Below are positions 999 to 16,480 of a stretch of DNA of 58,216 nucleotides, in pieces (position 1 is the first letter of the stretch; every line of letters begins with the position of its first letter). The notes under the pieces are model-generated. The model did no database searches. It saw only the letters and a program-made list of their open reading frames with translations, and was not told the origin of the DNA. The stretch is from an uncultured Pseudomonadales bacterium (GTDB lineage Bacteria; Patescibacteriota; Microgenomatia; UBA1400; PJMF01). The stretch covers positions 1 through 58,216 of the forward strand of contig CAZDWQ010000002.1 in NCBI GenBank assembly GCA_964509285.1, written 5' to 3'. The position numbers were made by a program, and so were the translations under genes.

Positions 999-1276
999 TT
1001 TTTCCTTTCCCCTGACTTCCTGAATTTATAATTTTTTGTATGGAAGTAGGTGTGCCTACTTCCATTACATGGAAATAAAAAAGCGGGGTGAGTTTGTCAA
1101 GGGTTGCGAGTATGCGAGCAATTTACGAAGCCCTTGTCAAATGAGGGGCAAGGCCCCTGAAACAGTTAGGAAAAAAGAGAAAGATCGGGAAAAGAGAGAA
1201 CTTAAAACAAAAAAATATCAAACTCGAATTGCTCTGAGAAACTCTCAAAGCAATTAGGTATTAAAAGAAATAGAAA

Positions 1277-3331
1277 CTACTCATACCGCAAAGCATTAAG
1301 TGCAGAAATCTTGGTCGCACGTTTCGCTGGATAATATCCAGTCAAAATACCTACAACTAATGAGAGAGCTACCACTGTTAGTACAAACGAAAATGGAACA
1401 ACTGAAACATCAACAAAACCAACACCACGAGCAATGGCTACACTCGATAGGAGTAAGCTCAATAGCTTGCCCACACCAAAGCCAATTAACAGTCCAAGTA
1501 GTCCACCATAAAATCCCATAATCATTGATTCTGTTAAAAATAGCTCGCGTACTTCTTCAGATTTCATACCCATCGCTTTCATCAAGCCAACCTCACGGGT
1601 TCGCTCCAACAGTGACACAGTCAGGGTGTTAAACATTCCTAGTGTTGCCACAGAGAGTGCGACCATACCAATTATTGCCAAAACAAGTCTAAAAGAGACA
1701 AACAAGCTATTAATTTGTGAAACGGTATCTACCACAGAGACCGTACCATATCCCATTGCCTCGATAGATGCACGCACACCCGGCAAGGAGTCTTTGTCAT
1801 CTGCTATTACTTTAATTTGTGAAATCCTTGTTATACCAAGCGAGCGTAACTCAATAAATGGCACATAGACTACGGGAGTGCCTTCCTCTGGGGTGACTCC
1901 TACTATGGTGTAGTCAGTAGGAACAGATTCGATTCTATCTGATTCGCCTTCTGTTAAGTCTCCAACTGCGACAAAGGTTAGGGTGATTTTCTTGCCAACA
2001 GCTTCGCTCTCACTCATGCCAATGATTGCAAGCACTGCTCTGTTTACAACTGCTTGCTTGAGAGCTTGATCGGGAATTGGGATAACTCTACGATTTTCAT
2101 TCACTACTTCTGCCGAAGCAGTTGCAAGGGTAACAACAGGCAGAGTGCCATCTGATCTCACTTGTGTTCCAGAAGTGTCTTGTGTGTCAGCTTGTGCAAT
2201 TTGCGTTGTTTCTCCTAAAACCTTATCAGTCACTATCACAGAAATCTGAGCTGTGTATCCAGTTTGCACAACTTGGTTAGCAGATTCATCCTTGAGCGGT
2301 ACATATTGTCCATCTTCACACTCTGGGTCAATTAAGACATTTTCAGTTGCTTCATCAGTTTGCGAAACAGCACAAGCAACTTCTCTCCATAGAGTAAACT
2401 CTGACTGAATCCATAATCCCTGTCTTTCACCAGCATCATCTAACACTTCTGGGCCTGAATAGCCAGTATAGTATGAACCAATTACTTGATTCCCTTCCTG
2501 ATTTGTCTGCATCCTTCTGGTGTAACCAATAACAGACCCCTCAGTTGAGCTTTCACTTCTCACCCGTAACCATGCACCATCCGAAATATTGAAAAGAATT
2601 GGTTTTTCTTGTGTTGTAGTTGAATCTGCTGTTTGTTCTTCAGCAATTTCCCCACCTTCTTGAGTTCTGCGATTTTTAACAGTATAGGCAATCTCTTGAC
2701 TGTCAAAAATTTTGCCTTGAATTGGTTGAATTGCAGACGAAGTTAAGTAATCAGTGGTCACGCCGTATACAGCCAAATCAGACACAGAATCTTGAAAGGA
2801 AACTCTCCCAACTACGCTAATAAGTGGCAGGGTTGCCTTCACGTTTGGCATTGCATTCAGACGAGATAAAATTTCATCAGTCAGTGCGAGTTCTTCGCTT
2901 AAACCCGGTAAAATTTCTGCTTGCTGTAGTTCTTCAAGGCGCGCTACTCTTGTAGTCACCATGTCCTGCAATCCATACCCAAGAGACACTAAAAACACAA
3001 TGAAGGCAATACCAATAGCCATACCACCGACCGTAACAATGGTGCGTGTTTTTTTGGCTTGCATGTTACGAAAAGCAAGTTCAATCAGGTAAGAGCGACT
3101 CACATTACTACCTTTGTCAAAATCTAGTTTTACAGAAATCTTTTCATAAAATTGGTTGAATTTGCTGGCAACACCTCTAAAAAATCGAGCAGTTTTTCGA
3201 GTTGGCAGCGAGAGTGAATCGAGCAATAATTTTATTGAATACAAAATCACTAACACAGTAAAGCCAACTATAATCAGCAAGCGATGTAGCATTTTAGGAA
3301 TAGCTTGTGTTATTGGTGTAAAAAATCTCAT
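1277..3331 (-). CDS. ABC transporter permease, FtsX/MacB-type with large extracytoplasmic domain
   Basis: 684 aa. An N-terminal TM is followed by a long soluble insert and a C-terminal FtsX-like 3-TM bundle (LMKAMGMKSEEVRELFLTESMIMG...). It overlaps the upstream ATPase gene by 4 nt. Confidence 0.85.
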   Translation of the reverse strand: MRFFTPITQAIPKMLHRLLIIVGFTVLVILYSIKLLLDSLSLPTRKTARFFRGVASKFNQFYEKISVKLDFDKGSNVSRSYLIELAFRNMQAKKTRTIVTVGGMAIGIAFIVFLVSLGYGLQDMVTTRVARLEELQQAEILPGLSEELALTDEILSRLNAMPNVKATLPLISVVGRVSFQDSVSDLAVYGVTTDYLTSSAIQPIQGKIFDSQEIAYTVKNRRTQEGGEIAEEQTADSTTTQEKPILFNISDGAWLRVRSESSTEGSVIGYTRRMQTNQEGNQVIGSYYTGYSGPEVLDDAGERQGLWIQSEFTLWREVACAVSQTDEATENVLIDPECEDGQYVPLKDESANQVVQTGYTAQISVIVTDKVLGETTQIAQADTQDTSGTQVRSDGTLPVVTLATASAEVVNENRRVIPIPDQALKQAVVNRAVLAIIGMSESEAVGKKITLTFVAVGDLTEGESDRIESVPTDYTIVGVTPEEGTPVVYVPFIELRSLGITRISQIKVIADDKDSLPGVRASIEAMGYGTVSVVDTVSQINSLFVSFRLVLAIIGMVALSVATLGMFNTLTVSLLERTREVGLMKAMGMKSEEVRELFLTESMIMGFYGGLLGLLIGFGVGKLLSLLLSSVAIARGVGFVDVSVVPFSFVLTVVALSLVVGILTGYYPAKRATKISALNALRYE

Positions 3332-4083
3332 GTCTCTTGCCTTTGACCACGTTTCATATGGTTGCCATTTTTCTTTGCATAGTCGCTTGGATCTTGTAAC
3401 TCTGCTACTATTTTGCCATTAAACATCTCTAAGCTTCTGCCAGCATACTCTAAGTATTCCAAGTCATGAGTAACCATGATGACTGTTTTGCCTTGTTTAT
3501 GCAGAGATTCAAGCAGTTTCATTAATTCTTGACCCGATTCAAAATCCAAGTTACCCGTTGGCTCGTCTGCAATGATAATATCGGGATTGGTTACCACCGC
3601 ACGAGCAAGGGCAACTCTTTGTTGTTGACCAGAACTTAACTCAGTAGGAATATAATCCTGCCAATCGGTCATGCCAACCAGAGACAACACTTCAAGTGCT
3701 CGAGTTGATGCCTGACTCACTTTCATACCACTCAGACGCAGAGCAAACATCACATTTTCTTTGACACTGAGAGATTTAATCCAGTTTGGTTGCTGATACA
3801 CCATGCCAATATGTTCTTTTCTAATTTCTGACCTGCCATCTTCATCCAAGTTGCCATACAGTGACTTGCCCATAAAAACCACATCACCTTTGGTTGGTTC
3901 TTCAAGCCCCAGTAAAATATGTAGGAGTGTTGATTTGCCACAACCAGATGGCCCAAAAATCACTAAAAACTCACCTGTAGAAACAGACATGCTCACATCA
4001 TGTAAGACCTCGACATTTTGTGCTTTCACAAAAAAGGTTTTAGAAATATTTTTGGCCACGACTATTACTTGTTTTGATTGCAC
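3328..4083 (-). CDS. ABC transporter ATP-binding protein (MacB/LolD-like)
   Basis: Walker A GPSGCGKSTLL, signature LSSGQQQRVALARA, Walker B IIIADEPTGNLD, H-loop VTHD. Confidence 0.95.
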   Translation of the reverse strand: MQSKQVIVVAKNISKTFFVKAQNVEVLHDVSMSVSTGEFLVIFGPSGCGKSTLLHILLGLEEPTKGDVVFMGKSLYGNLDEDGRSEIRKEHIGMVYQQPNWIKSLSVKENVMFALRLSGMKVSQASTRALEVLSLVGMTDWQDYIPTELSSGQQQRVALARAVVTNPDIIIADEPTGNLDFESGQELMKLLESLHKQGKTVIMVTHDLEYLEYAGRSLEMFNGKIVAELQDPSDYAKKNGNHMKRGQRQET

Positions 4084-4090
4084 TATATTT

Positions 4091-7000
4091 TTATTCCCTC
4101 AAGAAGCTTAAAAAGCTAAATGCTGATACTAAATTTTCAATGACTAAATCAAGGGCAGAGCGAGTGGCTTTTGGTGCAATGGTTGCCATGTCAATGCTTT
4201 TACCCTCATTGCCTGCAGAATCTTTAGAAATGGCTCTGAGGTGATACACTTGGCTTGGTGTGAGACCAGAAATGATAACGGTGTGATTGAGTGTTAGGTT
4301 GCCATCTTCTTGAGTTTTTTGGCTGTAGCTGGTTCCCGTACCTTCACCGTACTCAACTTGGGTAGTTGCTGGTTCGTCTGTGTCCCAAGAAACAACTAAT
4401 TGTGCTTTAATTTGACCTGCGGCGAAGCCAACTGGTGGGATAGTTCCACCAACAATCTTCATATTGAGAATTTGTGGTGGTCTGGTATCGGTGGCAGTAG
4501 TGAAAGTGTAGACATCAGATTCCGCCTCATTACCCACTCGGTCACGACCACGAACCACTAAATTGTATTGTTGTTGTGGTAAGAAGCCAGTAATAACCAT
4601 TTCTCGTCTGCCAGAGAGCAATTCAACCTCGACCTTGTCTTGTGCCAAACTTGGCTGTCCGGTTGGATAGTAGCTAACAATTCCAGACATTGGGGTGTTG
4701 GCGCTCCAACTCACTAAAATGGTAGTTTGAGAGGTGCCACCAATTTCTTGCAAGGTGACATTGGTAATTCGAGGACGAGGTAAAGTCTCAAAAGTTAAAG
4801 CTTGACCTTCGTACTCAAAACCTTCGCTGTCGAGGGTATTGATTTTGTAGTAGTACAAACTACCATCCTCAAGTCCCGTGAGTTCTGTGGTTACCGTATT
4901 TTCAGTTGTTGAAGTAGCCACTTCCTTAACTCCACCGAATTCTGTTGTTCTGCCATAGTAAATTTTGACACTACTGGCTCCAGTTACTGTGTAGCGAATA
5001 ATGGCACTAGTTAAGCCAATTTGAGTAGCTTGTGGATCAGTCACGGTTGGAGCAGGCTCAGTTGAAAATCGTTTTTCTTCGCTTTCACCTGTATTACCGT
5101 CTTCATCTGTCCATTTTGCTTTGTAATAGTACGTTGTACCAGGAGAAAGGTTAGTTAAGTTAATCACATGATCAGTTACTTGAGTAGAATTGGATGGTTC
5201 TTCATCAAAGTACTCACCTGATTTAGTTCCATAGGCAACTTTTGAATCACTATCTCTATTTGTAGTCCAAGATATTTTGGCTTTTCTGGTGGTAATATCA
5301 CTTGCCGTTGGCCCTGAAGTTAATTCTGCCGGATCGGTAAAGCTACCTTTGGGAATCAGAGTAACGGCATTAGTATAAGAGGGACTTGCAATTGAAGCTG
5401 CAGAAGTATCACTTGTACCAACTCTCCAATAGTATTGTTTTGATTCACCAACAGTATCAACATATGCTGTACCAGCAGTAGTGGTTATTGTTGTCCAATC
5501 GGTGCCGTTTTCTGAGCGTTGCACAGTGTAGGTAAGTGTGCCGGTTCCTTGATAGTCTGGATGATTCCAAGCTAGTGAGGCTCTCCACAGCTCCACTGAC
5601 TTAATCGATGCATCGGAGACTGTTAAATCTTTAGCTGGATCTGGATTGGTTGAGTTTAGAGTGAATGAGCCAGAAATGTAGTTGCTTGAAGAATAGTTAT
5701 TCCCATCATCTACTGCCACCACGCTCACAGTGTTACTTCCTTTTTGCACTCCAGATAATTTGCCCGCAGCAATTGAAGTGCTGGTGGTCGGAATATACGT
5801 GGCTGGATTACTTGTTAAGGTACTTAAAGTCACTGGCGGAGTTGTGTTGATCATGTAGTAATAGCTTGATACTGTTTGACCATCCGCAGGTGTTGCTTCT
5901 GGCCAAGAGAGAGCGAAAGAGTTGGTGGTATTTGTCGCAGGGGTTACTGTAACCACTGCGCCATCTGCAAAAACTGGTGCGTCACCTCCATATGCTAGAC
6001 TTCCAGTTCTGTATGAAGAAGGTAAAGATACGTTTCCAGATGCATCAACAGTTCTAAAGGTAATAATATTATCTCCAATCACTATATAATCTCCATCACG
6101 CTCCTGAGATAAATAGAGTGGTTGTTCAAAACCTGTGGGGATATAGTCAATTCCAAGTGTTGCATGTGTGGATGAACCCTCCCAAACATCACTATTGTTA
6201 ACCATGTACTGCCATCCTAGTACACCAGAGTGCACATCGCTACTTGCAGCACTCCCTGTTGTTGGCCAAGAAAAATTCATATCTTCTATGTTATTAAAAG
6301 TTCCAGAGGCAGGATTGATAAATGAAACATTGGTTGGTACGGCACTATCAAATTGAAAGTTAAACGATGTTGTACTGGTATTGTACGTGTTACCGACATT
6401 GTCAATTGCTTTGATATGCAAGTAATATGTTGAGCCATTGACAAAACTACTCGACAAGTAATCATCAACAGACAAATCAAGCGTAGTACCTGAAACAATA
6501 AATAAACAGTCAGTTCCAACGGTAGATACAGGGGAATTGGTCAATAATCCAGCCGTGCCAGACTCTGTCAGATGATTGCCTGGGTCAGCATTACTTTCTG
6601 TTCCTAAGTACAAACAGTATCCTTTTAAGCCTGCTCCACCTTCATTATCAGCTCCAGCTGTCCAAGTAAAATACGGCTCAAAGCTGTTAGACCAACCAGC
6701 TTCTTCAACAGTATGGCCGTCAACTGCTGATTTCATGGCAATTGAGGAGGCATTGGTGGTAGGTTCGGTGTTATCTGGATTGTAGTCAACGATACTCACA
6801 CCTGGAGTAGTAAAGTTAAACCAGCCTAAATCTTCGGAAAACGCATATCCACTTAAAGTACCATTTGTCAGGTTTATAGTTACCAAACTGTTGTAGTTGG
6901 TAAAATCTATATACGCACCAGTTTCCAAGACATACGCTTTTCCAGCCAACACTCCGGTACCAGAATCAAAGGTCACAGGCCCCTCTGGATTATCGACATC

Positions 7001-7258
7001 ACCAAAATCAACCCATCCCAAATCTTCTGAGAACACGTATCCACTAAAGTAGTGATTATTCATGTTGATACGGACATTAGAGTTGTAGTTGTCAAAATCA
7101 AGTAGTGCGCTAGTATTTTCAGATACAGCAGAGCCTGAAATAGCAAAACTCGCCGCATACACTAGGGGATGAAGAAACATTGCAACTGCTACTAGACCAA
7201 ATACCAATCCAAAGAACGGCAACAAGAACCTCTTAGCTGTTGACAGCATATTTTTCAT
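4091..7258 (-). CDS. large secreted/cell-surface protein with multiple fibronectin type III-like repeats
   Basis: 1055 aa with an N-terminal signal/anchor (FLLPFFGLVFGLVAVAMFL). It has a duplicated SEDLGW(V/F)(D/N)F motif and several C-terminal FN3-like modules (W..P......Y.V......G.Y.YRV-type patterns). It is co-oriented with the ABC pair. Confidence 0.75.
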   Translation of the reverse strand: MKNMLSTAKRFLLPFFGLVFGLVAVAMFLHPLVYAASFAISGSAVSENTSALLDFDNYNSNVRINMNNHYFSGYVFSEDLGWVDFGDVDNPEGPVTFDSGTGVLAGKAYVLETGAYIDFTNYNSLVTINLTNGTLSGYAFSEDLGWFNFTTPGVSIVDYNPDNTEPTTNASSIAMKSAVDGHTVEEAGWSNSFEPYFTWTAGADNEGGAGLKGYCLYLGTESNADPGNHLTESGTAGLLTNSPVSTVGTDCLFIVSGTTLDLSVDDYLSSSFVNGSTYYLHIKAIDNVGNTYNTSTTSFNFQFDSAVPTNVSFINPASGTFNNIEDMNFSWPTTGSAASSDVHSGVLGWQYMVNNSDVWEGSSTHATLGIDYIPTGFEQPLYLSQERDGDYIVIGDNIITFRTVDASGNVSLPSSYRTGSLAYGGDAPVFADGAVVTVTPATNTTNSFALSWPEATPADGQTVSSYYYMINTTPPVTLSTLTSNPATYIPTTSTSIAAGKLSGVQKGSNTVSVVAVDDGNNYSSSNYISGSFTLNSTNPDPAKDLTVSDASIKSVELWRASLAWNHPDYQGTGTLTYTVQRSENGTDWTTITTTAGTAYVDTVGESKQYYWRVGTSDTSAASIASPSYTNAVTLIPKGSFTDPAELTSGPTASDITTRKAKISWTTNRDSDSKVAYGTKSGEYFDEEPSNSTQVTDHVINLTNLSPGTTYYYKAKWTDEDGNTGESEEKRFSTEPAPTVTDPQATQIGLTSAIIRYTVTGASSVKIYYGRTTEFGGVKEVATSTTENTVTTELTGLEDGSLYYYKINTLDSEGFEYEGQALTFETLPRPRITNVTLQEIGGTSQTTILVSWSANTPMSGIVSYYPTGQPSLAQDKVEVELLSGRREMVITGFLPQQQYNLVVRGRDRVGNEAESDVYTFTTATDTRPPQILNMKIVGGTIPPVGFAAGQIKAQLVVSWDTDEPATTQVEYGEGTGTSYSQKTQEDGNLTLNHTVIISGLTPSQVYHLRAISKDSAGNEGKSIDMATIAPKATRSALDLVIENLVSAFSFLSFLRE

Positions 7259-7463
7259 TACTTCTACTATACCAATAAATAAACAAGACTGGCAAACTCA
7301 ATAATTATTCTTTACTATAATTAAGCCCCTACAATACAGTGGCCAGAATTTCATATAGCAAAAACACATTTGTTACTGCTTTTGAGAGTGAAGTTATAAA
7401 TTAAAAGGCGACTTGCTGACCCATACATTTTTATGGGTAAAACTATATAGCAAGTTTTCGTTG

Positions 7464-7601
7464 CTGCGGCCAATTACTGGTCGAGCACTACTAACACCAC
7501 GAATACTCATAACGCCTGGTACACTAACTTGAGTAATGGTAACACGAACAACAATACCAAGACGAATAATAACTCGTTTAGGTGTGTACGTTAGCGCAAG
7601 G
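7464..7601 (+). repeat. DGR template repeat (TR)
   Basis: 138 bp that is the reverse complement of 10658-10795 (paired positions sum to 18259). 127/138 positions are identical. All 11 mismatches fall at TR adenines: 7502, 7509, 7526, 7536, 7541, 7542, 7548, 7551, 7554, 7566, 7569. Confidence 0.92.
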
Positions 7602-7611
7602 ACTCTTATTT

Positions 7612-7968
7612 ATGACAATGTTTTATCAAAGCATGCCACTGTATCTTGGGCTTTTGGATTTACTTAAATTTGAATACCTAATAGTTAAAGGCTTGCCAAA
7701 AGAATATAAACACACTCTGGGTGAGAATATTCTCAGCCTAACTTGGCAACTCATCGACTTATTTATAGAAATACAGCTTAATCAGTCATTTAAAACACCA
7801 AAAAAACTGTATCTCATAAAATCAATGAATACCTATCATGAGCAACTCAAATTACGAATTCGATTCTTAGGTGATTTGAAACTCATCTCACTTAAACAAC
7901 AAGCCACAATAAATACACATGTTGTTGAAATTGGCAAAATGATTGGGAGCTGGATTAAAAATGTATAA
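7612..7968 (+). CDS. avd: DGR accessory variability determinant (Avd-like four-helix-bundle protein)
   Basis: About 118 aa, lying directly upstream of the RT. The C-terminus ...VVEIGKMIGSWIKNV resembles the Bordetella phage Avd C-terminus (..EVGRILGSWIARV). The start is taken as ATG 7612 rather than the track start at 7582, which lies inside the TR. Confidence 0.75.
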   Translation: MTMFYQSMPLYLGLLDLLKFEYLIVKGLPKEYKHTLGENILSLTWQLIDLFIEIQLNQSFKTPKKLYLIKSMNTYHEQLKLRIRFLGDLKLISLKQQATINTHVVEIGKMIGSWIKNV

Positions 7969-7979
7969 CAAACTCCCTT

Positions 7980-9125
7980 GTGCCTGCTAGTATTTTTTGC
8001 TATCAAAAAGTGCTTAAGGCATATTTTAATTGTCGTATTAATAAGCGAAAGTCTATTAGTGCGATTTCTTATGAACTCCAACTTGAAAAAAATTTAGCAG
8101 AGCTAACGACGCAACTTCAGCAAAGAACCTATATTCCAGATAGATTGGTATGTTTTGTTATCACAAAACCAAAGGCAAGAGAAATCTTTGCCTCCGAATT
8201 TGCAGACCGCATTACACACCACATTTTGATAAACGAGGTAGAAAAGATTTGGGAAAAAGATATTTTCATTACCGACTCATATGCTTGCAGAAAAGGGAAA
8301 GGTCATCACTTCGCAGCTCAAAGGGTATACTCGTTTGCACAGAAATATCGTTATTATGGACAGTTTGATATCAAAAATTTCTTCTCAAGCCTCAGTAAGC
8401 AAAAATTGTTTGATCAGTTTCGTAAGGTGATAGTAAAACAACATAGACCAGGGTTTTGGAAAGATGATATTTTATGGCTTGCGAAAACCATTATTTTTAA
8501 TGACCCCACACATAATGCTTTTTACAAGGGAGACCCCAAACTCAAATTACTGTTACCACACCAAAAATCACTCTTTGAACAAGATGAAGATATTGGTATG
8601 CCTATTGGAAATTTAAGTAGTCAATTTTTAGCAAACGTGTATATGCATGAGCTAGATGCATTTGTCACAAATGAGCTTAAAATTCCTGCCTATGCTCGGT
8701 ATGTTGATGATTTTATTATTTTTAGCAATTCAAAAGATGAAATTATCAAAGCTAGAAATGAAATGTCGAAATTTCTGTTCGCAAACCTTAAACTTACTCT
8801 TCATCCAAAGAAACAACAAATTCAACCAACCAAGCATGGCATTCCCTTTGTTGGCTATTTTATTAGACCCACTGGCATACAAGTGAGACGTAATGTAGTT
8901 AAGGCAGTGAAGAACAAACTGTATGCATATAAAAAGCAACCCAATCCAGATGCAATGATTACTTCACTGAATTCATACTATGGCCACTTTTGCATTGCTC
9001 GGTCATACAATTTAAGGAAACACTTATTTTTTGAACATATTGATCCCAAACTTCGGCCTATCCTTTGGATCATTGGCAATTGGAAGTATTTTAGGCTCAC
9101 TAAGAGTTGCAAGCTTAAAAAGTAA
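7980..9125 (+). CDS. DGR-type reverse transcriptase
   Basis: 381 aa with a GTG start. It has the KPKAREIFASEFADRITHHIL motif, the DGR-diagnostic IGNLSSQFLANVYM (LGxxxSQ-type rather than QGxxxSP), and the catalytic YARYVDDFIIF box. Confidence 0.9.
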   Translation: MPASIFCYQKVLKAYFNCRINKRKSISAISYELQLEKNLAELTTQLQQRTYIPDRLVCFVITKPKAREIFASEFADRITHHILINEVEKIWEKDIFITDSYACRKGKGHHFAAQRVYSFAQKYRYYGQFDIKNFFSSLSKQKLFDQFRKVIVKQHRPGFWKDDILWLAKTIIFNDPTHNAFYKGDPKLKLLLPHQKSLFEQDEDIGMPIGNLSSQFLANVYMHELDAFVTNELKIPAYARYVDDFIIFSNSKDEIIKARNEMSKFLFANLKLTLHPKKQQIQPTKHGIPFVGYFIRPTGIQVRRNVVKAVKNKLYAYKKQPNPDAMITSLNSYYGHFCIARSYNLRKHLFFEHIDPKLRPILWIIGNWKYFRLTKSCKLKK

Positions 9126-9135
9126 CCATAAGTTA

Positions 9136-9201
9136 TTGACATTTAAAAAATAGTTGTTAGACTAATAACTAGACTAATCGCTAGACTGAAAATAGACTAA
9201 T
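9136..9201 (+). promoter_or_regulatory. putative promoter (TTGACA-N16-TAGACT) overlapping four phased direct repeats of TAGACT(A/G)A
   Basis: TTGACA lies at 9136-9141. Repeat units start at 9158, 9170, 9182 and 9193, giving 12/12/11-bp spacing. The array ends at the fic ATG (9203). Confidence 0.5.
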
Positions 9202-9202
9202 T

Positions 9203-10408
9203 ATGAATGAAATTACAATACTAAAACCATTTACTAAGCCTTTCTTAAACCAACTCATTCTCACCCCGAGTTTACTTCCTTTTACAGATGAAGAAATTCT
9301 TAAGCTTGATAGTGATTTGAGTCAATATGAACAGCTATTCTTAGATCCTGATATTGAAAAAAACCTTATTAGCAAGAATGAGTTATTAGCCTCTTTTGCT
9401 ATTTCTAAAGCAGAGAACTCTAGCCTAACGCTCCAAGAGGCACAAGATATATATGCTTTCATTTTAAAAAATGAAGAGTACTCCTTCATAGCAGAAAAGC
9501 TAAAAGCCAAAAAAAAGCTAACCAAAAAAGATTACGAAAAACTTGAGTTTTTCAACATCGCTAAAACTTTCAGAAATTTTCAAGCAGTAAAAATCAATGA
9601 CATCACACCACAGTTTATCCGAGATTTACATCAGCAATTAACACAAGGTTTGGATGTTTTCCAAAACTATTTGCCACACTTTGACATTTACAAATCGGGA
9701 AGTTGGAGAAACAACGATACAATTCGAGTTGGGTCTTACCAACCGGCTCCCTATACTTCTATCCCAGCTGGAGTCACTGAATTATTAAACTGGATAAAAG
9801 AGCACCAAACAATTACTTCTGTTGGTATCTTTCACACAGCACTGTATGCACTTCACCCATTTTGCAACGGAAATAAAAGAGTCTCAAGAATCCTTGAGCA
9901 TATATTGCTTAGATCCTTGAACATTAATACAAAAAATTTATATAGCACTTCTTACTACTACCACAAGGAAAAAACTCGATACTACAAATACCTTCTCTTT
10001 TCTTTAGAGCGAAAGAACTTAAATCATTTTGTCAATTTCTTTCAGGAATCACTTGTGCTCTCAATTCTTGCAGTCATAAAGACCAGTCTTGAAGTAAAAC
10101 GTATGGATTTTCTGGAAAGCAAAGATCTAGATGCTCAAGCAAAGCTTGTTTGTAGACCACTTATCAAAAGACATGAAGTCCAATTTAAAAATCTACTAAA
10201 AAGTATTGGTAACAAAATGGCTCGCCAGACTTTTGTTAACTACCTACAATTAGCTGTAGACCAAGGAGTAGCCATTAGAAGAGAAAGTGGTAAAACTACT
10301 TTTTACAGTTTGAACATATCTCCACAAGAAGAAAGTACGTTTAAAGAAATGCTTACATTTATACAAACAAAACTTTCATTCATTCCTGACGAGATTAAGT
10401 TAGCGTAA
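9203..10408 (+). CDS. Fic/DOC-family protein with non-canonical active-site motif and C-terminal winged-helix-like region
   Basis: The motif HPFCNGNKRVSR sits at the expected position, compared with the canonical HPFx(D/E)GNGRxxR. 401 aa. Confidence 0.75.
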   Translation: MNEITILKPFTKPFLNQLILTPSLLPFTDEEILKLDSDLSQYEQLFLDPDIEKNLISKNELLASFAISKAENSSLTLQEAQDIYAFILKNEEYSFIAEKLKAKKKLTKKDYEKLEFFNIAKTFRNFQAVKINDITPQFIRDLHQQLTQGLDVFQNYLPHFDIYKSGSWRNNDTIRVGSYQPAPYTSIPAGVTELLNWIKEHQTITSVGIFHTALYALHPFCNGNKRVSRILEHILLRSLNINTKNLYSTSYYYHKEKTRYYKYLLFSLERKNLNHFVNFFQESLVLSILAVIKTSLEVKRMDFLESKDLDAQAKLVCRPLIKRHEVQFKNLLKSIGNKMARQTFVNYLQLAVDQGVAIRRESGKTTFYSLNISPQEESTFKEMLTFIQTKLSFIPDEIKLA

Positions 10409-10422
10409 TGGCACTTCTCAAG

Positions 10423-10456
10423 CAACCATCTGTATTTGTATAAATTCAGATGGTTG
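10423..10456. other. perfect 10-bp inverted repeat (CAACCATCTG-N14-CAGATGGTTG) between convergent fic and DGR target genes
   Basis: Read directly from the sequence. There is no flanking T-run, so it is not a canonical intrinsic terminator. Confidence 0.5.
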
Positions 10457-10508
10457 AGTAGCAGATATTTGGATGACTTTGTCAATGCCAAAAAAAATCG
10501 TAGCGCGA

Positions 10509-10528
10509 GTCTTGCCTATCGGCAAGAC
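10509..10528 (-). terminator. candidate terminator hairpin downstream of the DGR target gene
   Basis: GTCTTGCC-tatc-GGCAAGAC forms a perfect 8-bp stem. On the minus strand a T8 run (10491-10498) follows after about 10 nt, which is non-ideal spacing. Confidence 0.35.
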
Positions 10529-10632
10529 ACCAAATGAACCAAATCAAATATTGATAGTCAACATAAGTATTACTATAGGAGAAACTATGACTTATTTAAA
10601 CACTTATTTGTATAATATCAAAAGAGATCAAA

Positions 10633-10650
10633 CACTGTCTAACGACAGTG
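10633..10650 (-). promoter_or_regulatory. VR-proximal hairpin (7-bp stem, 4-nt loop), candidate DGR target-recognition structure
   Basis: The coding strand reads CACTGTC-GTTA-GACAGTG, beginning 7 nt beyond the 3' end of TR/VR homology. No counterpart follows the TR. Confidence 0.6.
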
Positions 10651-10657
10651 AAAAAGG

Positions 10658-10795
10658 CCTTGCGCTAACGTACACACCTAAACGAGTTAGTAGTCGTCTT
10701 GGTAATGGTGCTCGTGGCACCAGTACTCAAGTAAGTGTACCAGGCGTTAAGAGTATACGTGGTGTTAGTAGTGCTCGACCAGTAATTGGCCGCAG
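10658..10795 (-). repeat. DGR variable repeat (VR), covering the last 43 codons, the stop and 7 nt of 3' flank of the target gene
   Basis: See the TR feature. VR encodes ...AANYWSSTTNTTYTLNAWYTYLSTGATSTITKTTTNSFRCVR*. TR would encode ...NTHNAWYTNLSNGNTNNNTKTNNNSFRCVR*. Confidence 0.92.
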
Positions 10796-11507
10796 AGTTA
10801 CTTAAAGCGGACGCTCCACCATCTATGTATGCCATCATATTCTCTTTTTGGTATGGAAGTCGCCAGTTACCATCGCCCTGTGCTTCACAGCCCGTTTTGG
10901 ACTCTGTTAATTTGGTACAAATACAACCTGGGTTACCATTGGCAGTACATGCATTAGGACCTAAGGGAGCTACTCCATTGCTTGGTTGCAAACAGTTATT
11001 AGCAGTAAACCAATTAGCACTCGCACTTATACGTGTAGACCAAATCAAACCAGTATTTTCGTCTTGTTTCTCAGCAAGTGAGTCTGCAGTGTCACAGTAG
11101 TTATTACCTACATTACAAGTAGTCCAGTCAGCAGTGTAGCTACCTGCAACATAGGTAGTATCATCATGAATGCCACCTTTGTTTTGTGGGAAGTCAGTGT
11201 TGCCACCATTGTATAATCCATTGGCTTTTGCATCATTGAATGTACCTTGAGCTGCAGAGCTAATTCTATTCCAATATGCTCCCCAATCAGCAATGGCTCC
11301 GTTGGCTGGATCTCCATAACTGAGTGCTTCAAGACTATCTGCAAGTTGTTTCAGGCGGGAATCAGCACCCGCTACCGGAGAACCACCAGACTGTTCAGCC
11401 CGAATGGTGGTGATGGTTTTGGTAATGGCAAATGTTGCCAGACCTATGAAGATGACGGAAAATATTAGTAGTGATTTTAATCTGTTTTTTGTTGTTTTTT
11501 GTGTCAT
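10665..11507 (-). CDS. DGR target protein: membrane-anchored/secreted, DUF1566 (Lcl C-terminal)-like C-type-lectin-fold domain
   Basis: 280 aa with an N-terminal hydrophobic anchor (LLIFSVIFIGLATFAI). The C-terminal pattern is ...GNWRLPYQKENMMAYI...YWSST...FRCVR. The VR sits at the extreme C-terminus. Confidence 0.85.
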   Translation of the reverse strand: MTQKTTKNRLKSLLIFSVIFIGLATFAITKTITTIRAEQSGGSPVAGADSRLKQLADSLEALSYGDPANGAIADWGAYWNRISSAAQGTFNDAKANGLYNGGNTDFPQNKGGIHDDTTYVAGSYTADWTTCNVGNNYCDTADSLAEKQDENTGLIWSTRISASANWFTANNCLQPSNGVAPLGPNACTANGNPGCICTKLTESKTGCEAQGDGNWRLPYQKENMMAYIDGGASALSNSAANYWSSTTNTTYTLNAWYTYLSTGATSTITKTTTNSFRCVR

Positions 11508-11798
11508 TGCTGTTTTAACTTTGTTTATTGTGTTAGTGATTTATTTTACTAATGTGAGAACATATAGCTAATAGAATATACTGGTAGTCGAGTTAATGTT
11601 TTGAAATAGTTTCAATATTTTTGAGCCACCACACACCAATTACCTACATTTATAGTGACGGATTTACTTGGTATTTGTCAAGTGTAGTTTTAGTTTTATT
11701 GGGTTGTTTTTGGCTGTTATGATTTTCGTCATTGCAGTTAGCTTGAAGATCATCTAGCCAGTAATAATCAATCACAATTGTTATTAGTTTTTTCTCTC

Positions 11799-11826
11799 TT
11801 GATATACCCCAGACTACTGATATAAT
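11799..11826 (+). promoter_or_regulatory. sigma70-like promoter TTGATA-N16-TATAAT upstream of the T4SS cluster
   Basis: The hexamers lie at 11799-11804 and 11821-11826. Confidence 0.4.
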
Positions 11827-11865
11827 TTGATACAATTTAAATCAAAAGTAAATTGTTATAACAAG

Positions 11866-11895
11866 AGCTGCCCTACTAGTGAGGTAGCTTTTTTT
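11866..11895 (+). terminator. hairpin plus T-run between the promoter and the virB2-like gene (attenuator or small-RNA terminator candidate)
   Basis: AGCTGCC-N10-GGTAGCT (one G:U pair) is followed by TTTTTTT and ends 29 nt before ATG 11924. Confidence 0.4.
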
Positions 11896-11923
11896 GTAAC
11901 AACTCATAGTGAAAGGGTTGTAT

Positions 11924-12256
11924 ATGAAAAAGCTAGTATTCTTCCAAAGCTTGGTGCTTACTTCATTGGTCGTTGCCTCACCAGCATTTGCTCAATCTAC
12001 AGAAGTTGGTCAGATCCAGTCTTTCATTCAAAGTGTTATTCAAGTTATGGTCACGCTTTCTGGTTTTATTGCAGCTGGTTTCATAGTCTGGGGTGGCGTT
12101 GGCTACATTACTAGTTCTGGAAACCCAGAAGCGCTGGATAAATCAAAGAAGACTATTCTGTATTCTGCTATTGGTCTTACTTTAGTTTTAGGAGCATTTG
12201 TTATTTCAAATATTGTCAGCCAATTAGCAACAACCGCCTTTGGGGCAGGTATGTAA
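11924..12256 (+). CDS. TrbC/VirB2-like T4SS pilin
   Basis: About 110 aa. It has a signal peptide ending AFAQS and two hydrophobic helices separated by YITSSGNPEALDKSKKT. An RBS (GAAAGGG) precedes ATG 11924. Confidence 0.7.
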   Translation: MKKLVFFQSLVLTSLVVASPAFAQSTEVGQIQSFIQSVIQVMVTLSGFIAAGFIVWGGVGYITSSGNPEALDKSKKTILYSAIGLTLVLGAFVISNIVSQLATTAFGAGM

Positions 12257-13575: not shown

Positions 13576-14081
13576 GAAGTCAAGTAATTCCCGCTCAAAT
13601 AACCACAGTGGAAGATAAAATTGCAGGTGATTTTAGTATGACGCAAATTATGCTGTTATTATTACCTGTCTTAATTACCTCGGCAATTTATGCATTCATG
13701 CCACCAAGCATGACACTGGTTATTTATAAGTTAGTACTGGCAAGTGTGCTTGCAATCTTTTGTATTACTCTAGCTGTGCGAGTAAAAGGTAGACTTGTTG
13801 CAAATTGGCTTTTAGTGTTTGCTCGATACAACCTACGCCCTAAGTTTTATATTTACAACAAAAACACGACGCTTTACAGAGAAGTGATTAAGCCAGAAAT
13901 AGTGTTGAATGCTGTGCAAAAAACAGCACGCCAAAAGAAAAAAACCAAACTAATCAGTACTCCTAATATTCGTGACATTCTGCAACTCAATCATATTTTA
14001 GACACCACCGATTTTAACTTCATCTACAAAACAGGCAAGAAAGGAGGGCTGAATGTGGCTTTTGAAAAAGTCTCTAGATAA
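13572..14081 (+). CDS. PrgI/VirB3-like small T4SS membrane protein
   Basis: The N-terminus QVIPAQITTVEDKIAGDFSMTQIMLLLLP plus two TM helices match the PrgI-family pattern. The gene sits immediately upstream of VirB4 and overlaps its neighbour by 4 nt. Confidence 0.6.
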   Translation: MRSQVIPAQITTVEDKIAGDFSMTQIMLLLLPVLITSAIYAFMPPSMTLVIYKLVLASVLAIFCITLAVRVKGRLVANWLLVFARYNLRPKFYIYNKNTTLYREVIKPEIVLNAVQKTARQKKKTKLISTPNIRDILQLNHILDTTDFNFIYKTGKKGGLNVAFEKVSR

Positions 14082-14673
14082 GGTTAGTTCTAGAAACCAA
14101 ATTGCAATCAAAGAAGTGCGTGATGGTATTTTAGTTTTACCTAATAATGAACATCGTTTAATTATCGAAACTTCCCCTGTAAACTTTGAACTTAAAAGTG
14201 AGGCCGAACAAGATGTGTTGATTGATAGTTTTCAGAATTTTTTGAATTCTCTACCAACGCAGTTGCAGATTTTAATTCGTATCCGCGAAGTAGATATTGA
14301 TCAATACATCGACTCAATTGAGTTGCTCAAGACGACAGAAACAGATGATCAATATTTAGAGCATATTGATGACTACACTCAGTTTATTCGCCAGCTTGTA
14401 TCTGGAAATAAAATTTTATCTCGCAAGTTCTACATTGTGCTTCCATATAAGCCAGAAAATTCCAACAACGCATTTGATCTTGCAAAAACACAACTGAATC
14501 TCACCCAAGATATGGTAATTAAGGCGCTTGAAAAACTAGGTATGAAAGCTCGAACTTTAAATAGCTTGGAAGTCTTGCAACTTTTTTATAGTTTCTACAA
14601 TAAAAACCAACTTAAAACTCAAGAATTATCTAGTGCAACAATGAAAGCAGTCTTGGAGCATAACTATGTTTAA
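14053..14673 (+). CDS. VirB4-family ATPase, N-terminal domain encoded as a separate ORF
   Basis: IKEVRDGILVLPNNEHRLIIETSPVNFELKSEAEQDVLIDSFQNFLNSLPTQLQILIRIREVDI matches the N-terminal domain of Gram-positive VirB4/TraE/PrgJ proteins. An 8-nt overlap (ATGTTTAA) links it to the next ORF. Confidence 0.7.
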   Translation: MWLLKKSLDKVSSRNQIAIKEVRDGILVLPNNEHRLIIETSPVNFELKSEAEQDVLIDSFQNFLNSLPTQLQILIRIREVDIDQYIDSIELLKTTETDDQYLEHIDDYTQFIRQLVSGNKILSRKFYIVLPYKPENSNNAFDLAKTQLNLTQDMVIKALEKLGMKARTLNSLEVLQLFYSFYNKNQLKTQELSSATMKAVLEHNYV

Positions 14674-16480
14674 TCTTGTGCAATCAAACTATCAAATTAT
14701 AAAAAAATGGAATTCTAAAAAGATGCGTAAATTCCGTGCTGGTCAGGAAAAGAAGCGTCGAGAACGGTTGTCCCTACAGTTTAGTTTTGGTGAGCAAGAT
14801 CAAGTTGATCTGATTTCATATTCTGGATTGATGGAAGAATCAACCTATGTGCAGATTGGCGACACCTTTGTACGAACACTGTTTATTTCTGGCTATCCAT
14901 ATGTAGCTAATGTAGGTTGGTTAAATATGCTTATAAATTTTAACCATGACTTGGATATTTCATATCATATTGAACAAGTAGATCCTTTAATGGCTCTGCC
15001 AAAACTTAATCGCAAAATAACTGAGCTTGAATCAACCAAACGAAGCATGCTTAAAGCCGGAAAAGTGATTGGTTCTGAAATTACTGATCCGCTTGAGTCT
15101 GCCATGGAACTGAAAGACAAAATCCAAAGAGGGCAAGAAAAACTCTTTCAGATATCTATTTATATGACTTTGAGTGCAAGTAGTTTGGAAGAGTTAAATA
15201 AAACTACTCAGGTGTTAGAGACAATCATGGCCTCCAGAATGTTTTATATTAAAACTGCCACCTTTCAGCAATTAGAAGGTCTACAATCTGTTTTACCAAG
15301 GGGTGAAAACCAACTCGCACAAAAAAGAAACTTGGATAGTTCGAGTGCCGCACTTACTTTTCCGTTTGTTTCATCTGAGCTAGTGCAAGAATCTGGTATT
15401 TTGTATGGAATTAATAAGTCAAATAACTCGCTGGTCATTGTGGATCGGTTTTCTTTGAATAATGCTAACTCAATTATTTTTGCTCAATCTGGAAGTGGTA
15501 AAAGCTACACTGCTAAGGTCGAAATCTTGCGTCAACTCATGCAACAAACCAAAGTGATTGTTATTGACCCAGAGCGGGAATATAAACAACTTGCTAAATC
15601 TATTGGTGGCACATATATTCGTTTGTCTGCAACTTCTAAAGAGAAAATTAATCCTTTTGATTTTTCGCTTAAATCTGTGACTGGTGAAAATGGACTGGCT
15701 GAACACATTCAAGATCTAACTGAGATTATTTCATTGATGGCAGGTTCACTCTCTGATGAAGAACGTGCAGTGGTAGATAAAGCATTGATTAAAACTTACA
15801 AGCAGTTTGGTATTAGTATGAGAAAACAAAAGTATGAAGAAAAAGTAAAGTTCCCACTTCTCAAAGATTTTTATAAAGTGCTCAAGACCATGAAACAAAA
15901 AGAATTGTGTCACAGGTTAGATAAGTTTGTGAGTGGTTCACTTTCTAGCGTATTTACCGCACAAACTAATGTAGATCTATCTAACAGACTGGTTGTTTTT
16001 GATATTAAAGATCTTGATGAGTCATTGCGCCAGATAATGATTCTCACAACTGCCAATTTTGTTCACTCACAGGTGAAAAGTGATCCACAAAAAAGAATTT
16101 TAGTCATAGATGAGGCTTGGTTGCTATTACAACATGAAGAAAGCGCTCGATTCCTAGCAGGTCTTGTAAGGCGTGCCCGCAAACATTACTTAGGAGTGAC
16201 TTTAATTTCTCAACAAGCTAATGACTTTTTGAATCAAGAATACGGCAGAGTTATTGCCTCACAATCATCTTTGAGAATTCTGATGAAACAGGATACAACC
16301 TCAATTAAAAAAGTAGTGCAAGAATTTAACTTGAGTGAGTATGAGCAACAATTTTTACTGACTTGTGATCGAGGCGAAGCCTTAATTATTGCTGATCAAA
16401 ACCATGTTGCCGTTAAAATTGTTGCTTCAGAAAAAGAACACCCAATGTTAACCACTGATCCGAAAGATTTATATCTATAG
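14666..16480 (+). CDS. virB4: VirB4-family T4SS ATPase (central and C-terminal ATPase domains)
   Basis: Walker A FAQSGSGKSYT and Walker B RILVIDEAWLLL are present, plus YLGVTLISQQ. The context is T4SS genes. Confidence 0.9.
   Translation: MFNLVQSNYQIIKKWNSKKMRKFRAGQEKKRRERLSLQFSFGEQDQVDLISYSGLMEESTYVQIGDTFVRTLFISGYPYVANVGWLNMLINFNHDLDISYHIEQVDPLMALPKLNRKITELESTKRSMLKAGKVIGSEITDPLESAMELKDKIQRGQEKLFQISIYMTLSASSLEELNKTTQVLETIMASRMFYIKTATFQQLEGLQSVLPRGENQLAQKRNLDSSSAALTFPFVSSELVQESGILYGINKSNNSLVIVDRFSLNNANSIIFAQSGSGKSYTAKVEILRQLMQQTKVIVIDPEREYKQLAKSIGGTYIRLSATSKEKINPFDFSLKSVTGENGLAEHIQDLTEIISLMAGSLSDEERAVVDKALIKTYKQFGISMRKQKYEEKVKFPLLKDFYKVLKTMKQKELCHRLDKFVSGSLSSVFTAQTNVDLSNRLVVFDIKDLDESLRQIMILTTANFVHSQVKSDPQKRILVIDEAWLLLQHEESARFLAGLVRRARKHYLGVTLISQQANDFLNQEYGRVIASQSSLRILMKQDTTSIKKVVQEFNLSEYEQQFLLTCDRGEALIIADQNHVAVKIVASEKEHPMLTTDPKDLYL

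Follow-up and report, generated by a model that had tools for sequence, protein, structure and literature searches.

In the diversity-generating retroelement (DGR) of Bordetella phage BPP-1, which is arranged mtd-avd-TR-brt, a reverse transcriptase (RT) and the accessory protein Avd accompany a template repeat (TR) and a variable repeat (VR); the VR lies at the 3' end of a gene for a lectin-fold protein, differs from the TR in an adenine-specific manner, is associated with an initiation-of-mutagenic-homing (IMH)-like segment, and is followed by a hairpin. In the Bordetella system, the 3' end of the TR and the downstream spacer (Sp) form a 7-bp helix, by which Sp A56 is placed to prime at TR G117, and Avd is bound by the spacer. 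DGRs of bacteria of the candidate phyla radiation (CPR) were reportedly treated by Paul et al. in 2017. Here, we analyzed a stretch of 58,216 nt (contig CAZDWQ010000002.1 of GenBank assembly GCA_964509285.1, hereafter the window), and are highly confident that it carries a complete, chromosomal DGR of a Patescibacteria-specific lineage that is probably active. The RT, Avd, adenine-specific differences, VR at the 3' end of a lectin-fold gene and IMH-like segment of BPP-1 have counterparts in the window, and a hairpin after the VR is a candidate counterpart of the one in BPP-1. The two elements differ in gene order (avd-TR-RT in BPP-1, TR-avd-RT in the window), in the location of the RNA partner of the TR 3' end (downstream in BPP-1, predicted to be upstream of the TR in the window), in the short gap of ~10 nt between the TR and the avd start in the window, and in setting, as the BPP-1 element is phage-borne and that of the window is cellular.

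Existing catalogues already show that DGRs of this clade, with this gene order, are abundant in the CPR (PMC5758913, PMC8144416). In the survey by Wu et al. (2018, PMC5758913), the TR-first order, named B3, was seen in 90% of their CPR set, non-DGR open reading frames (ORFs) are nested between the core genes and the target, and IMH/IMH* segments are near-universal. Roux et al. (2021, PMC8144416) reported that DGR clade 2 is restricted to Patescibacteria, and that CPR targets are typically without recognisable domains. The window element resembles the described CPR DGRs in its Patescibacteria host, in the position of the TR upstream of avd and RT, in having a single small target gene and nested, unrelated ORFs, and in being chromosomal. 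By its named RT homologues, its GyrB relatives and its TR-avd-RT order, it appears to fit clade 2 and architecture B3. There are also differences. The B3 order is written 'TR-(avd)-RT' by Wu et al., with parentheses denoting the reverse strand, which would set it apart from the window, where avd is on the strand of the TR and RT; the target has a DUF1566/Lcl_C domain and a predicted membrane anchor, unlike the typical CPR targets of Roux et al.; and in the sub-clade to which the window belongs, the target gene is usually convergent and comes immediately after the RT. The core features of the element are the following.

7464-7601, plus strand: TR, aligned without gaps to the VR as read on the minus strand.
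7602-7616, plus strand: TR 3' boundary, made up of A7602 (a fixed A/C difference) and then the 3' strand of a helix, P4 (7603-7616), which covers an upstream ATG at 7612.
7618-7968, plus strand: avd, accessory variability determinant (Pfam bAvd, E=1.7e-16).
7980-9125, plus strand: DGR RT of 381 aa with a GTG start (RVT_1, E=6e-18; motifs IGNLSSQ and YVDD).
10652-10795, minus strand: VR (10658-10795) with a 6-nt imperfect extension (10652-10657, CCTTTT) that forms the IMH-side boundary, delimited by alignment to the TR.
10665-11507, minus strand: target gene of 280 aa (Pfam Lcl_C, E=1.5e-11).

When the TR was re-aligned to the reverse complement of 10658-10795, the two matched without gaps at 127 of 138 positions, and all 11 mismatches were at TR adenines (7502, 7509, 7526, 7536, 7541, 7542, 7548, 7551, 7554, 7566 and 7569). 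The changes from TR to VR are A to T (four), A to C (five) and A to G (two). These values reproduce exactly the repeat coordinates, identity, mismatch positions and adenine-only pattern of the original prediction, which had been made from the sequence alone. With 47 adenines among the 138 positions, the probability of all 11 mismatches falling on A by chance is 3.0e-6 (hypergeometric). Read in the frame of the 280-aa ORF on the minus strand, the mismatches alter positions 1-2 of nine AAY codons and convert one CAT to CTT, in line with the AAY codons and single CAT claimed earlier, and the peptides quoted earlier for the two repeats are exact in this frame. The VR encodes residues 239-280 of the 280-aa target, at the 3' end of its ORF. 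The TR is non-coding and lies outside any conserved ORF; it includes 13 in-frame AAY codons, and only one of its codons (AAG) could yield a stop by mutagenesis, while the ~13 AAY-encoded positions give a theoretical repertoire of ~10^25 proteins. No further copies of the repeat were found in the 58-kb window.

The 3' part of the TR is IMH*-like, with 32 nt (7570-7601) free of TR/VR differences. The perfect match stops at ...AAGG, beyond which the TR reads A-CTCTT and the VR C-CTTTT, and the homology extends imperfectly for 6 nt (7602-7607 / 10652-10657). A boundary of the form GG-A-CTTT in the TR and GG-C-CTTT in the VR recurs in 12 of 17 related loci. Judged from these sequences, the difference between A7602 of the TR and the C of the VR is a fixed boundary mark and not the result of mutagenesis; because this A is never randomised in VRs, it would lie outside the copied segment and mark the distinction between IMH* and IMH. 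The element thus has an invariant 3' segment followed by imperfect homology that tells VR from TR, and an IMH function is predicted for it. An antisense ORF of 110 aa (10473-10805, plus strand) overlaps the VR and has an AGGAGA-N5-ATG context at ~10590. It was treated as spurious; the ATG is absent in L032, a related locus described below.

The Avd-like gene that had been placed beside the TR is well supported. The C-terminus quoted for it is present, and the product scores 61 bits with Pfam bAvd (cut-off 40), while its score of 63.5 bits with NCBIfam DivGenRetAVD is under the 80-bit cut-off of that model. The start at ATG 7618 is conserved, and the beginning of the protein, ATGTTTTAYCAAA, is kept in all relatives. 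Alternative starts are ATG 7612, which is chosen by gene callers, and GTG 7582, which lies inside the TR and gives the longest ORF; between the TR and the avd start there are ~10-20 nt. The first avd codons (7618-7640, ATGTTTTAYCAAAACATGCC) are near-invariant at the nucleotide level across loci, and a 7-8-bp hairpin is possible there. This hairpin (ATGTTTT..AAAACAT) was considered as a downstream 'Sp-like' element and rejected, as it shows no compensatory change, and the nucleotide conservation may instead reflect the MFYQNMP peptide.

The RT shows the [I/V/L]GxxxSQ motif of DGR enzymes as IGNLSSQ and the catalytic YxDD motif as YVDD, both of which had been pointed out previously. Its best match in the PDB is the RT of the Bordetella phage DGR (8ub7; E=1.8e-31, 113 bits), the next best are group II intron RTs (~42 bits, E=9e-10), and no group II intron or retron RT exceeds 42 bits, so that by its best PDB relative the enzyme is predicted to be of DGR type. 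Of its 1014 homologues, those that carry names come from Microgenomates, Brennerbacteria and Paceibacterota (Patescibacteria).

For the target protein, the Pfam match is to Lcl_C/DUF1566, and an AlphaFold (AF2) model built from 45 homologues has a predicted local distance difference test score above 90 at residues 125-280 and a helix at residues 6-39. A Foldseek search with this model gave the C-terminal domain of Legionella Lcl (8q4e) as the top PDB match (probability 1.0), and further matches to dozens of C-type lectin-like domains, consistent with the DUF1566/CLec-fold families to which the original prediction had suggested comparing the target. The 8q4e domain is the best match by both structure and sequence to residues ~150-280 (22% identity), although Lcl is a collagen-like adhesin and is not diversified by a DGR. 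The target has eight conserved cysteines and an N-terminal hydrophobic helix that would be a membrane anchor or signal, which together suggest an exported, membrane-anchored protein, and it is presumably surface-exposed and ligand-binding. In these respects it is similar to LdtA, the DGR target of Legionella pneumophila (category 'd' / CLec2 of Wu et al.), which also combines a short DUF1566-type lectin fold, conserved cysteines, an N-terminal export/anchor signal and a diversified C-terminus; the Legionella DGR differs in host phylum, RT lineage and its avd-TR-RT order.

The GyrB protein encoded in the window is 92% identical to that of a 'Patescibacteria group bacterium' and 75-78% identical to proteins of Woesebacteria, and on this basis the organism is placed among the Patescibacteria. 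The placement fits an earlier suggestion, itself conjectural, that the organism depends on contact with host cells. Several database titles that read 'uncultured Pseudomonadales' or 'Gammaproteobacteria' (loci L003, L004 and L006, and homologues P0145 and P0169) conflict with the GyrB and RT relatives and were disregarded; they probably reflect a placeholder or mistaken taxonomy at submission. Also encoded in the window are gyrA, an ATPase of type IV pili and a type IV secretion system (T4SS)-like cluster, and the element is therefore chromosomal in a CPR bacterium. The GyrB of the window (48611-50632, plus strand) is 673 aa long, while several relatives that are 81-96% identical have 812-1107 aa and include an intein domain (PF14890), so that intein presence appears to vary within the lineage.

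About 30 related loci, with RTs 54-93% identical to that of the window, were searched by a simple DGR-finder run, a check that had been suggested with the original prediction. A-biased TR/VR pairs were recovered in 17 of these, so that adenine-only pairs recur in the clade. In all 17, the TR is ~500 nt upstream of the RT and on the same strand, and in 15 an inverted VR follows shortly downstream of the RT, making the target gene convergent. A-biased pairs and the order TR-avd-RT are also present in four loci that are more distant (RT 43-47% identical), with the target upstream on the same strand. The TR-avd-RT order was seen in all loci compared (>20). VR alleles of relatives were taken from members of protein clusters; an exact-pattern scan of metagenome contigs with the invariant VR/TR 3' end found no VR alleles. 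Relatives close enough for a comparison of strains are listed here.

L001, JGI 3300078356: RT 93% identical and DNA ~86% identical to the window, with the same cassette.
L032, JGI 3300048836: sister lineage, with a target gene that outside the VR is 88.8% identical to that of the window.
L034, JGI 3300048837: belongs to the sister lineage together with L032.
L033, Logan SRR29782967: a further member of the sister lineage of L032 and L034.

The target genes of L032 and L034, which come from two metagenomes, are identical over the 712 nt before the VR (0/712 differ), but within the first 112 nt of the VR they differ at nine positions, all of them TR-adenine columns. The VRs of the window and L001 have 19 differences, again all at TR adenines and with every non-A column identical, compared to 16.7% of positions that differ in the target gene outside the VR. 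The VRs of L032-L034 depart from those of the window and L001 at non-A columns only where the TR of L032 has itself changed. Relative to the window TR, the L032 TR carries the substitutions C35T, A125G and C132T (called as non-A), which are mirrored in the VRs of L032, L033 and L034, and this mirroring shows that information has passed from the TR to the VR by copying after the split of the lineages. Between strains, the TR is 96-98% identical and the flanking genes 83-89%. By these comparisons the sister lineage shows very recent diversification and the DGR lineage is active, and the window strain is predicted to be still active as well. Overall, the earlier interpretation as a complete DGR with adenine-specific mutagenic retrohoming is supported from all sides: the repeat, Avd, RT, target, the pattern across the clade, and the activity in the sister strains.

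The DGR itself is one more well-annotated example among thousands, and it lends support to the idea that the genome-reduced Patescibacteria invest in hypervariable, lectin-like surface proteins, presumably for attaching to changing partners or for escaping phages. The comparison of strains shows recent activity with unusual clarity for evidence drawn solely from assemblies.

Some irregularities were seen among the repeats of the relatives. The TR of L001 reads CT at 9547-9548, where those of the window (7526-7527) and L032 read AA; at the same site, the VR of L034 has CT, and the VRs of L001 and L033 have TT. Either two TR adenines have mutated in L001 or VR-like sequence was copied back into its TR, and the single non-A mismatch inside the L001 repeat stems from this site. 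The VR of L032 (about 7660-7719) has a 1-nt deletion near its 3' end, reading CTCGATAGG for CTCGTTTAGG, by which the last residues are frameshifted and the protein becomes 292 aa long; this is either a repeat assembly error or a damaged allele. A Logan contig with an identical RT (SRR8893623) is broken within both the TR and the VR, as happens to repeats in assemblies.

The proposed mechanism is as follows. A transcript beginning near 7340 would carry a folded 5' element (7341-7455), the TR, avd and the RT gene. A complex of RT and Avd would reverse-transcribe the TR RNA, inserting random bases opposite adenines, and the resulting cDNA would replace the VR at the 3' end of the convergent gene on the opposite strand. 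A membrane-anchored, cysteine-rich protein with a DUF1566/C-type-lectin fold would thereby be randomised at its ~13 AAY-encoded positions. The transfer is proposed to be one-way because the segment 3' of ...AAGG differs between TR and VR, and because a hairpin follows the VR. The parts of the predicted RNA and of its promoter are given below.

7330-7335, plus strand: -10-like box TACAAT, the likely DGR promoter (position and function inferred), with a predicted transcript start near 7340.
7341-7455, plus strand: structured 5' RNA element of ~115 nt, from covariance models and covariation.
7341-7346, plus strand: GGCCAG, which opens the RNA element (motif GGGGCCAGA).
7349-7360 / 7377-7387, plus strand: helix P1, covarying.
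7384-7388, plus strand: conserved GAGAG motif.
7393-7407, plus strand: 5' strand of helix P4, with a core UUAAAAG at 7401-7407 and an extension GUUAUAAAU at 7393-7401, pairing with 7603-7616.
7407-7411, plus strand: invariant GGCGA (invariant motif AAAGGCGA).
7411-7417 / 7449-7455, plus strand: helix P2, covarying, which encloses P3.
7419-7425 / 7432-7438, plus strand: hairpin P3, covarying.

The 205-nt divergent intergenic region upstream of the TR is ~97% identical among the window, L001 and L032, which is above the identity of the coding flanks. Across the related loci, an element of ~115-140 nt always ends 4-10 nt before the TR, and in most of them the GGGGCCAG motif is preceded, at a distance of 5-9 nt, by a box resembling TACAAT. 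A covariance model built from six loci produced exactly one strong match per locus, on the RT strand and ending 19 nt inside the TR; the match in the window (7333-7482) scored 54 bits with this first model and 114 bits with a second. In the model-fitted alignment of 17 distinct sequences, 93.9% of cells were paired compared to 35-53% in slid controls, and compensatory changes were found in 18 of 28 pairs (P1, 9/11; P2, 5/7; P3, 4/4). The observed covariation score of this alignment was reached by none of 500 shuffles. RNAalifold recovered the same helices from the same fitted alignment, and RNAfold recovered P1-P3 from the window sequence alone. More distant DGRs (RT 33-47% identical) are matched only weakly by the covariance models, and for these the shared RNA layout was judged by inspection and duplex energies. 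There was no match to the RNA element in Rfam 15 at E<=1, and no description of it was found in a literature search that was incomplete and did not cover recent papers.

Helix P4 is a long-range pairing across the TR. In its consensus, the 7 nt ending at the first G of GGCGA (AUCAAAG) complement the 7 nt that follow the boundary A (CUUUGAU). A gapless, unfitted alignment of the core from 13 loci has four invariant pairs and three with compensatory changes, one of the pairs being CG in six, UA in four and AU in two. The covariation score is 0.258 versus 0.100 for shuffles (0/500), and the cognate strands pair at -7.7 kcal/mol compared to -5.7 kcal/mol for permuted strands (P=0.002). In the window, P4 extends to 7393-7407 / 7603-7616 and is present in the minimum-free-energy fold. 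Helices of unrelated sequence are also found at the places of P4 in distant loci: L037 has GAAUAUUAA/UUAAUAUUC, and L035 and L038 have GAUUCC/GGRAKU plus CGGCU/AGCC. P4 would bring the 3' end of the TR beside GGCGA/GAGAG and so set the start of a self-primed cDNA. It would be the counterpart of the ~7-bp TR-Sp helix of BPP-1, which abuts the copied TR 3' boundary; a Bordetella-type arrangement, in which an Sp downstream of the TR pairs with the TR 3' end, was not seen in the window.

We tentatively suggest, giving it somewhat less than an even chance, that the template RNA in this lineage of CPR DGRs is a permuted, retron-like version of the Bordetella RNA, in which a scaffold of P1, GAGAG, GGCGA, P2 and P3 lies 5' of the TR, P4 loops the TR, and the priming nucleotide is upstream of the template and not in a downstream spacer. 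Retron msr-msd RNA is closed by the a1/a2 inverted repeats. The likeness between the two is one of connectivity only, each running from the 5' strand of a closing helix through conserved purines and stem-loops to the template, and then to the closing helix's 3' strand, located where reverse transcription would begin. They are otherwise dissimilar, as there is no similarity in sequence or models, the window RT is of DGR type and is accompanied by Avd, and its product is predicted to enter a gene by homing and not to be kept as multicopy single-stranded DNA. The covarying RNA around the TR provides a testable model of template specificity and priming in the gene order of the CPR, among whose DGRs no layout is commoner, and suggests a connectivity common to DGR and retron RNAs. 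The covariance model could also be used to locate TRs and to orient DGR cassettes in fragmentary metagenomic contigs.

The hairpin that follows the VR was detected in a scan for terminator-like sequences.

10633-10650, minus strand: hairpin CACTGTC-GTTA-GACAGTG.

It has a 7-bp stem and a 4-nt loop (10650-10633), and starts 7 nt past the end of the perfect VR/TR match. At the same position in L033, the stem is instead CACCCCGC/GCGGGGTG, with compensatory changes, and other related loci have unrelated, G+C-rich hairpins after the VR. It may be a DGR target-site hairpin, an intrinsic terminator of the target gene, or both. The ~140 nt downstream of it (10491-10632, minus strand) are ~86% conserved with L001, and visibly so with L032, despite the different adjacent cargo genes. 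A second hairpin, GTCTTGCC-GATA-GGCAAGAC (10528-10509), ends this conserved stretch and is followed by a run of eight T. In a predicted fold, the 3' end of the VR (CGUUAGCGC) pairs with GCGCUACG 150 nt downstream (z=-2.9), and the stretch may be a structured 3' untranslated region of the target gene.

Alternative explanations were considered for both the element and its RNA. If the 3' end of the gene had been duplicated in inverted orientation and had diverged by ordinary mutation, next to an unrelated RT of the retron or group II intron type, then the locus would not be a DGR. The RT does have sub-threshold NCBIfam matches to group II intron, retron and Drt models, but all are far under the cut-offs, the A-only pattern (P=3e-6) recurs in >20 loci, the gene between TR and RT is a bAvd, and the best structural relative of the RT is a DGR RT. 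For retron or group II intron RNA, no Rfam family was found in 7200-11950 at E<=1, nor in the whole window at the gathering score. We regard this reading as effectively refuted. It is improbable, though less remote, that the locus is a genuine DGR that has become a frozen relic in the window strain, retrohoming having been lost through the insertion of a Fic-domain gene (see below) or some unseen defect. Such a relic would be compatible with the one VR allele known for the strain, and with a foreign gene with its own promoter-like site between RT and target, and the CT in the L001 TR, where the VRs and other TRs imply AA, indicates that TRs of this lineage can drift. Yet avd and RT are intact with their catalytic motifs, as are the boundary motif, the hairpin and the RNA element, and no non-A mismatch separates TR and VR; nested ORFs are common in functional DGRs, and very recent diversification is seen in a sister strain that has a different nested gene at this place.

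As for the RNA at 7341-7455, it could be an ordinary 5' leader that regulates avd-RT, or a divergent promoter region shared with the adjacent FN3 gene, with no part in retrohoming. Its position in the conserved divergent intergenic region would suit such a role, and P4 covers ATG 7612, which fits translational control. We consider this unlikely, as the element ends 4-10 nt before the TR in every locus, whatever lies upstream, and occurs also in loci where the target gene precedes it and not the divergent gene. Moreover, P4 pairs with the exact boundary of TR/VR homology and covaries, and cDNA synthesis in the Bordetella system requires the RNA that flanks the TR. A number of observations nevertheless count against the retrohoming DGR with a TR-looping RNA that we favor. 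Just one VR allele is known for the window strain, and the RT ORF begins with GTG and has no obvious ribosome-binding site. T-rich sequence trails the hairpin after the VR, which may be only a terminator and is indistinguishable from an intrinsic one, and inverted repeats after the VR are present in only 34% of DGRs according to Wu et al. (2018, PMC5758913). The count of covarying pairs in P1-P3 comes from an alignment that had been fitted to the covariance model, the support for P4 consists of three covarying pairs and the analogous helices in three distant loci, and the GAGAG linker could instead pair with AGGACUUU. A further helix (P0), between GGCCAG and CUGGUC of the TR, was set aside, as both of its strands are near-invariant and the only changes are one-sided, none being compensatory; in the fold of the window sequence, the TR's own GGCCA competes for CUGGUC.

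Between the RT and the target lies one additional gene.

9203-10408, plus strand: Fic-domain gene (Pfam Fic, E=2e-13).

Its 90% cluster has a single member, it has its own promoter-like site, and its active-site motif is degenerate (HPFCNGNKRVSR for HxFx[D/E]GNGRxxR). It is strain-specific cargo that is outside the DGR mechanism. The insertion point is exactly between ...TAGACTAATTATGA and a hairpin, CAACCATCTG...CAGATGGTTG (10423-10456). L001 (11350-12483) and L032 (8018-9154) lack the Fic gene and have a gene for an AAA_14/DUF4143 ATPase after that hairpin. As the two kinds of gene occupy different points of the same spacer, the spacer from RT to VR is a variable cargo slot. Between the RT stop and the Fic start (9158-9198, plus strand) are four direct copies of TAGACT(AAT), at 9158, 9170, 9182 and 9193, spaced 11-12 nt apart. 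Two or three of the copies are conserved in L001 and L032, and the array is possibly an operator or a protein-binding array.

The wider neighborhood is less constant. The target gene had been described as divergently adjacent to the T4SS cluster, and this adjacency is shared with L032 but is not conserved in L001, where rplJ/rplL are found at that position. A block of ~10 kb (1254-11514, corresponding to 3268-13606 of L001) comprises genes for a MacB-like permease, an ABC ATPase and a 1055-aa surface protein with FN3 repeats, together with the DGR and its target. It is ~86% identical between the two, and the flanks differ. In the window it is flanked by an ArdC-like gene and the T4SS cluster, and in L001 it lies within a stretch of ~14 kb between rplA and rplJ, along with three small ORFs and a gene for threonyl-tRNA synthetase; movement of the whole block as one unit is possible. 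Within the T4SS cluster of the window, the VirB4/TraC-like ATPase appears to be split into two overlapping plus-strand ORFs, one for the N-terminal part of TraC (14053-14673) and the other for the P-loop part (14666-16480). The same split is present in L032 (206 aa + 604 aa), and is therefore conserved and not a frameshift error.

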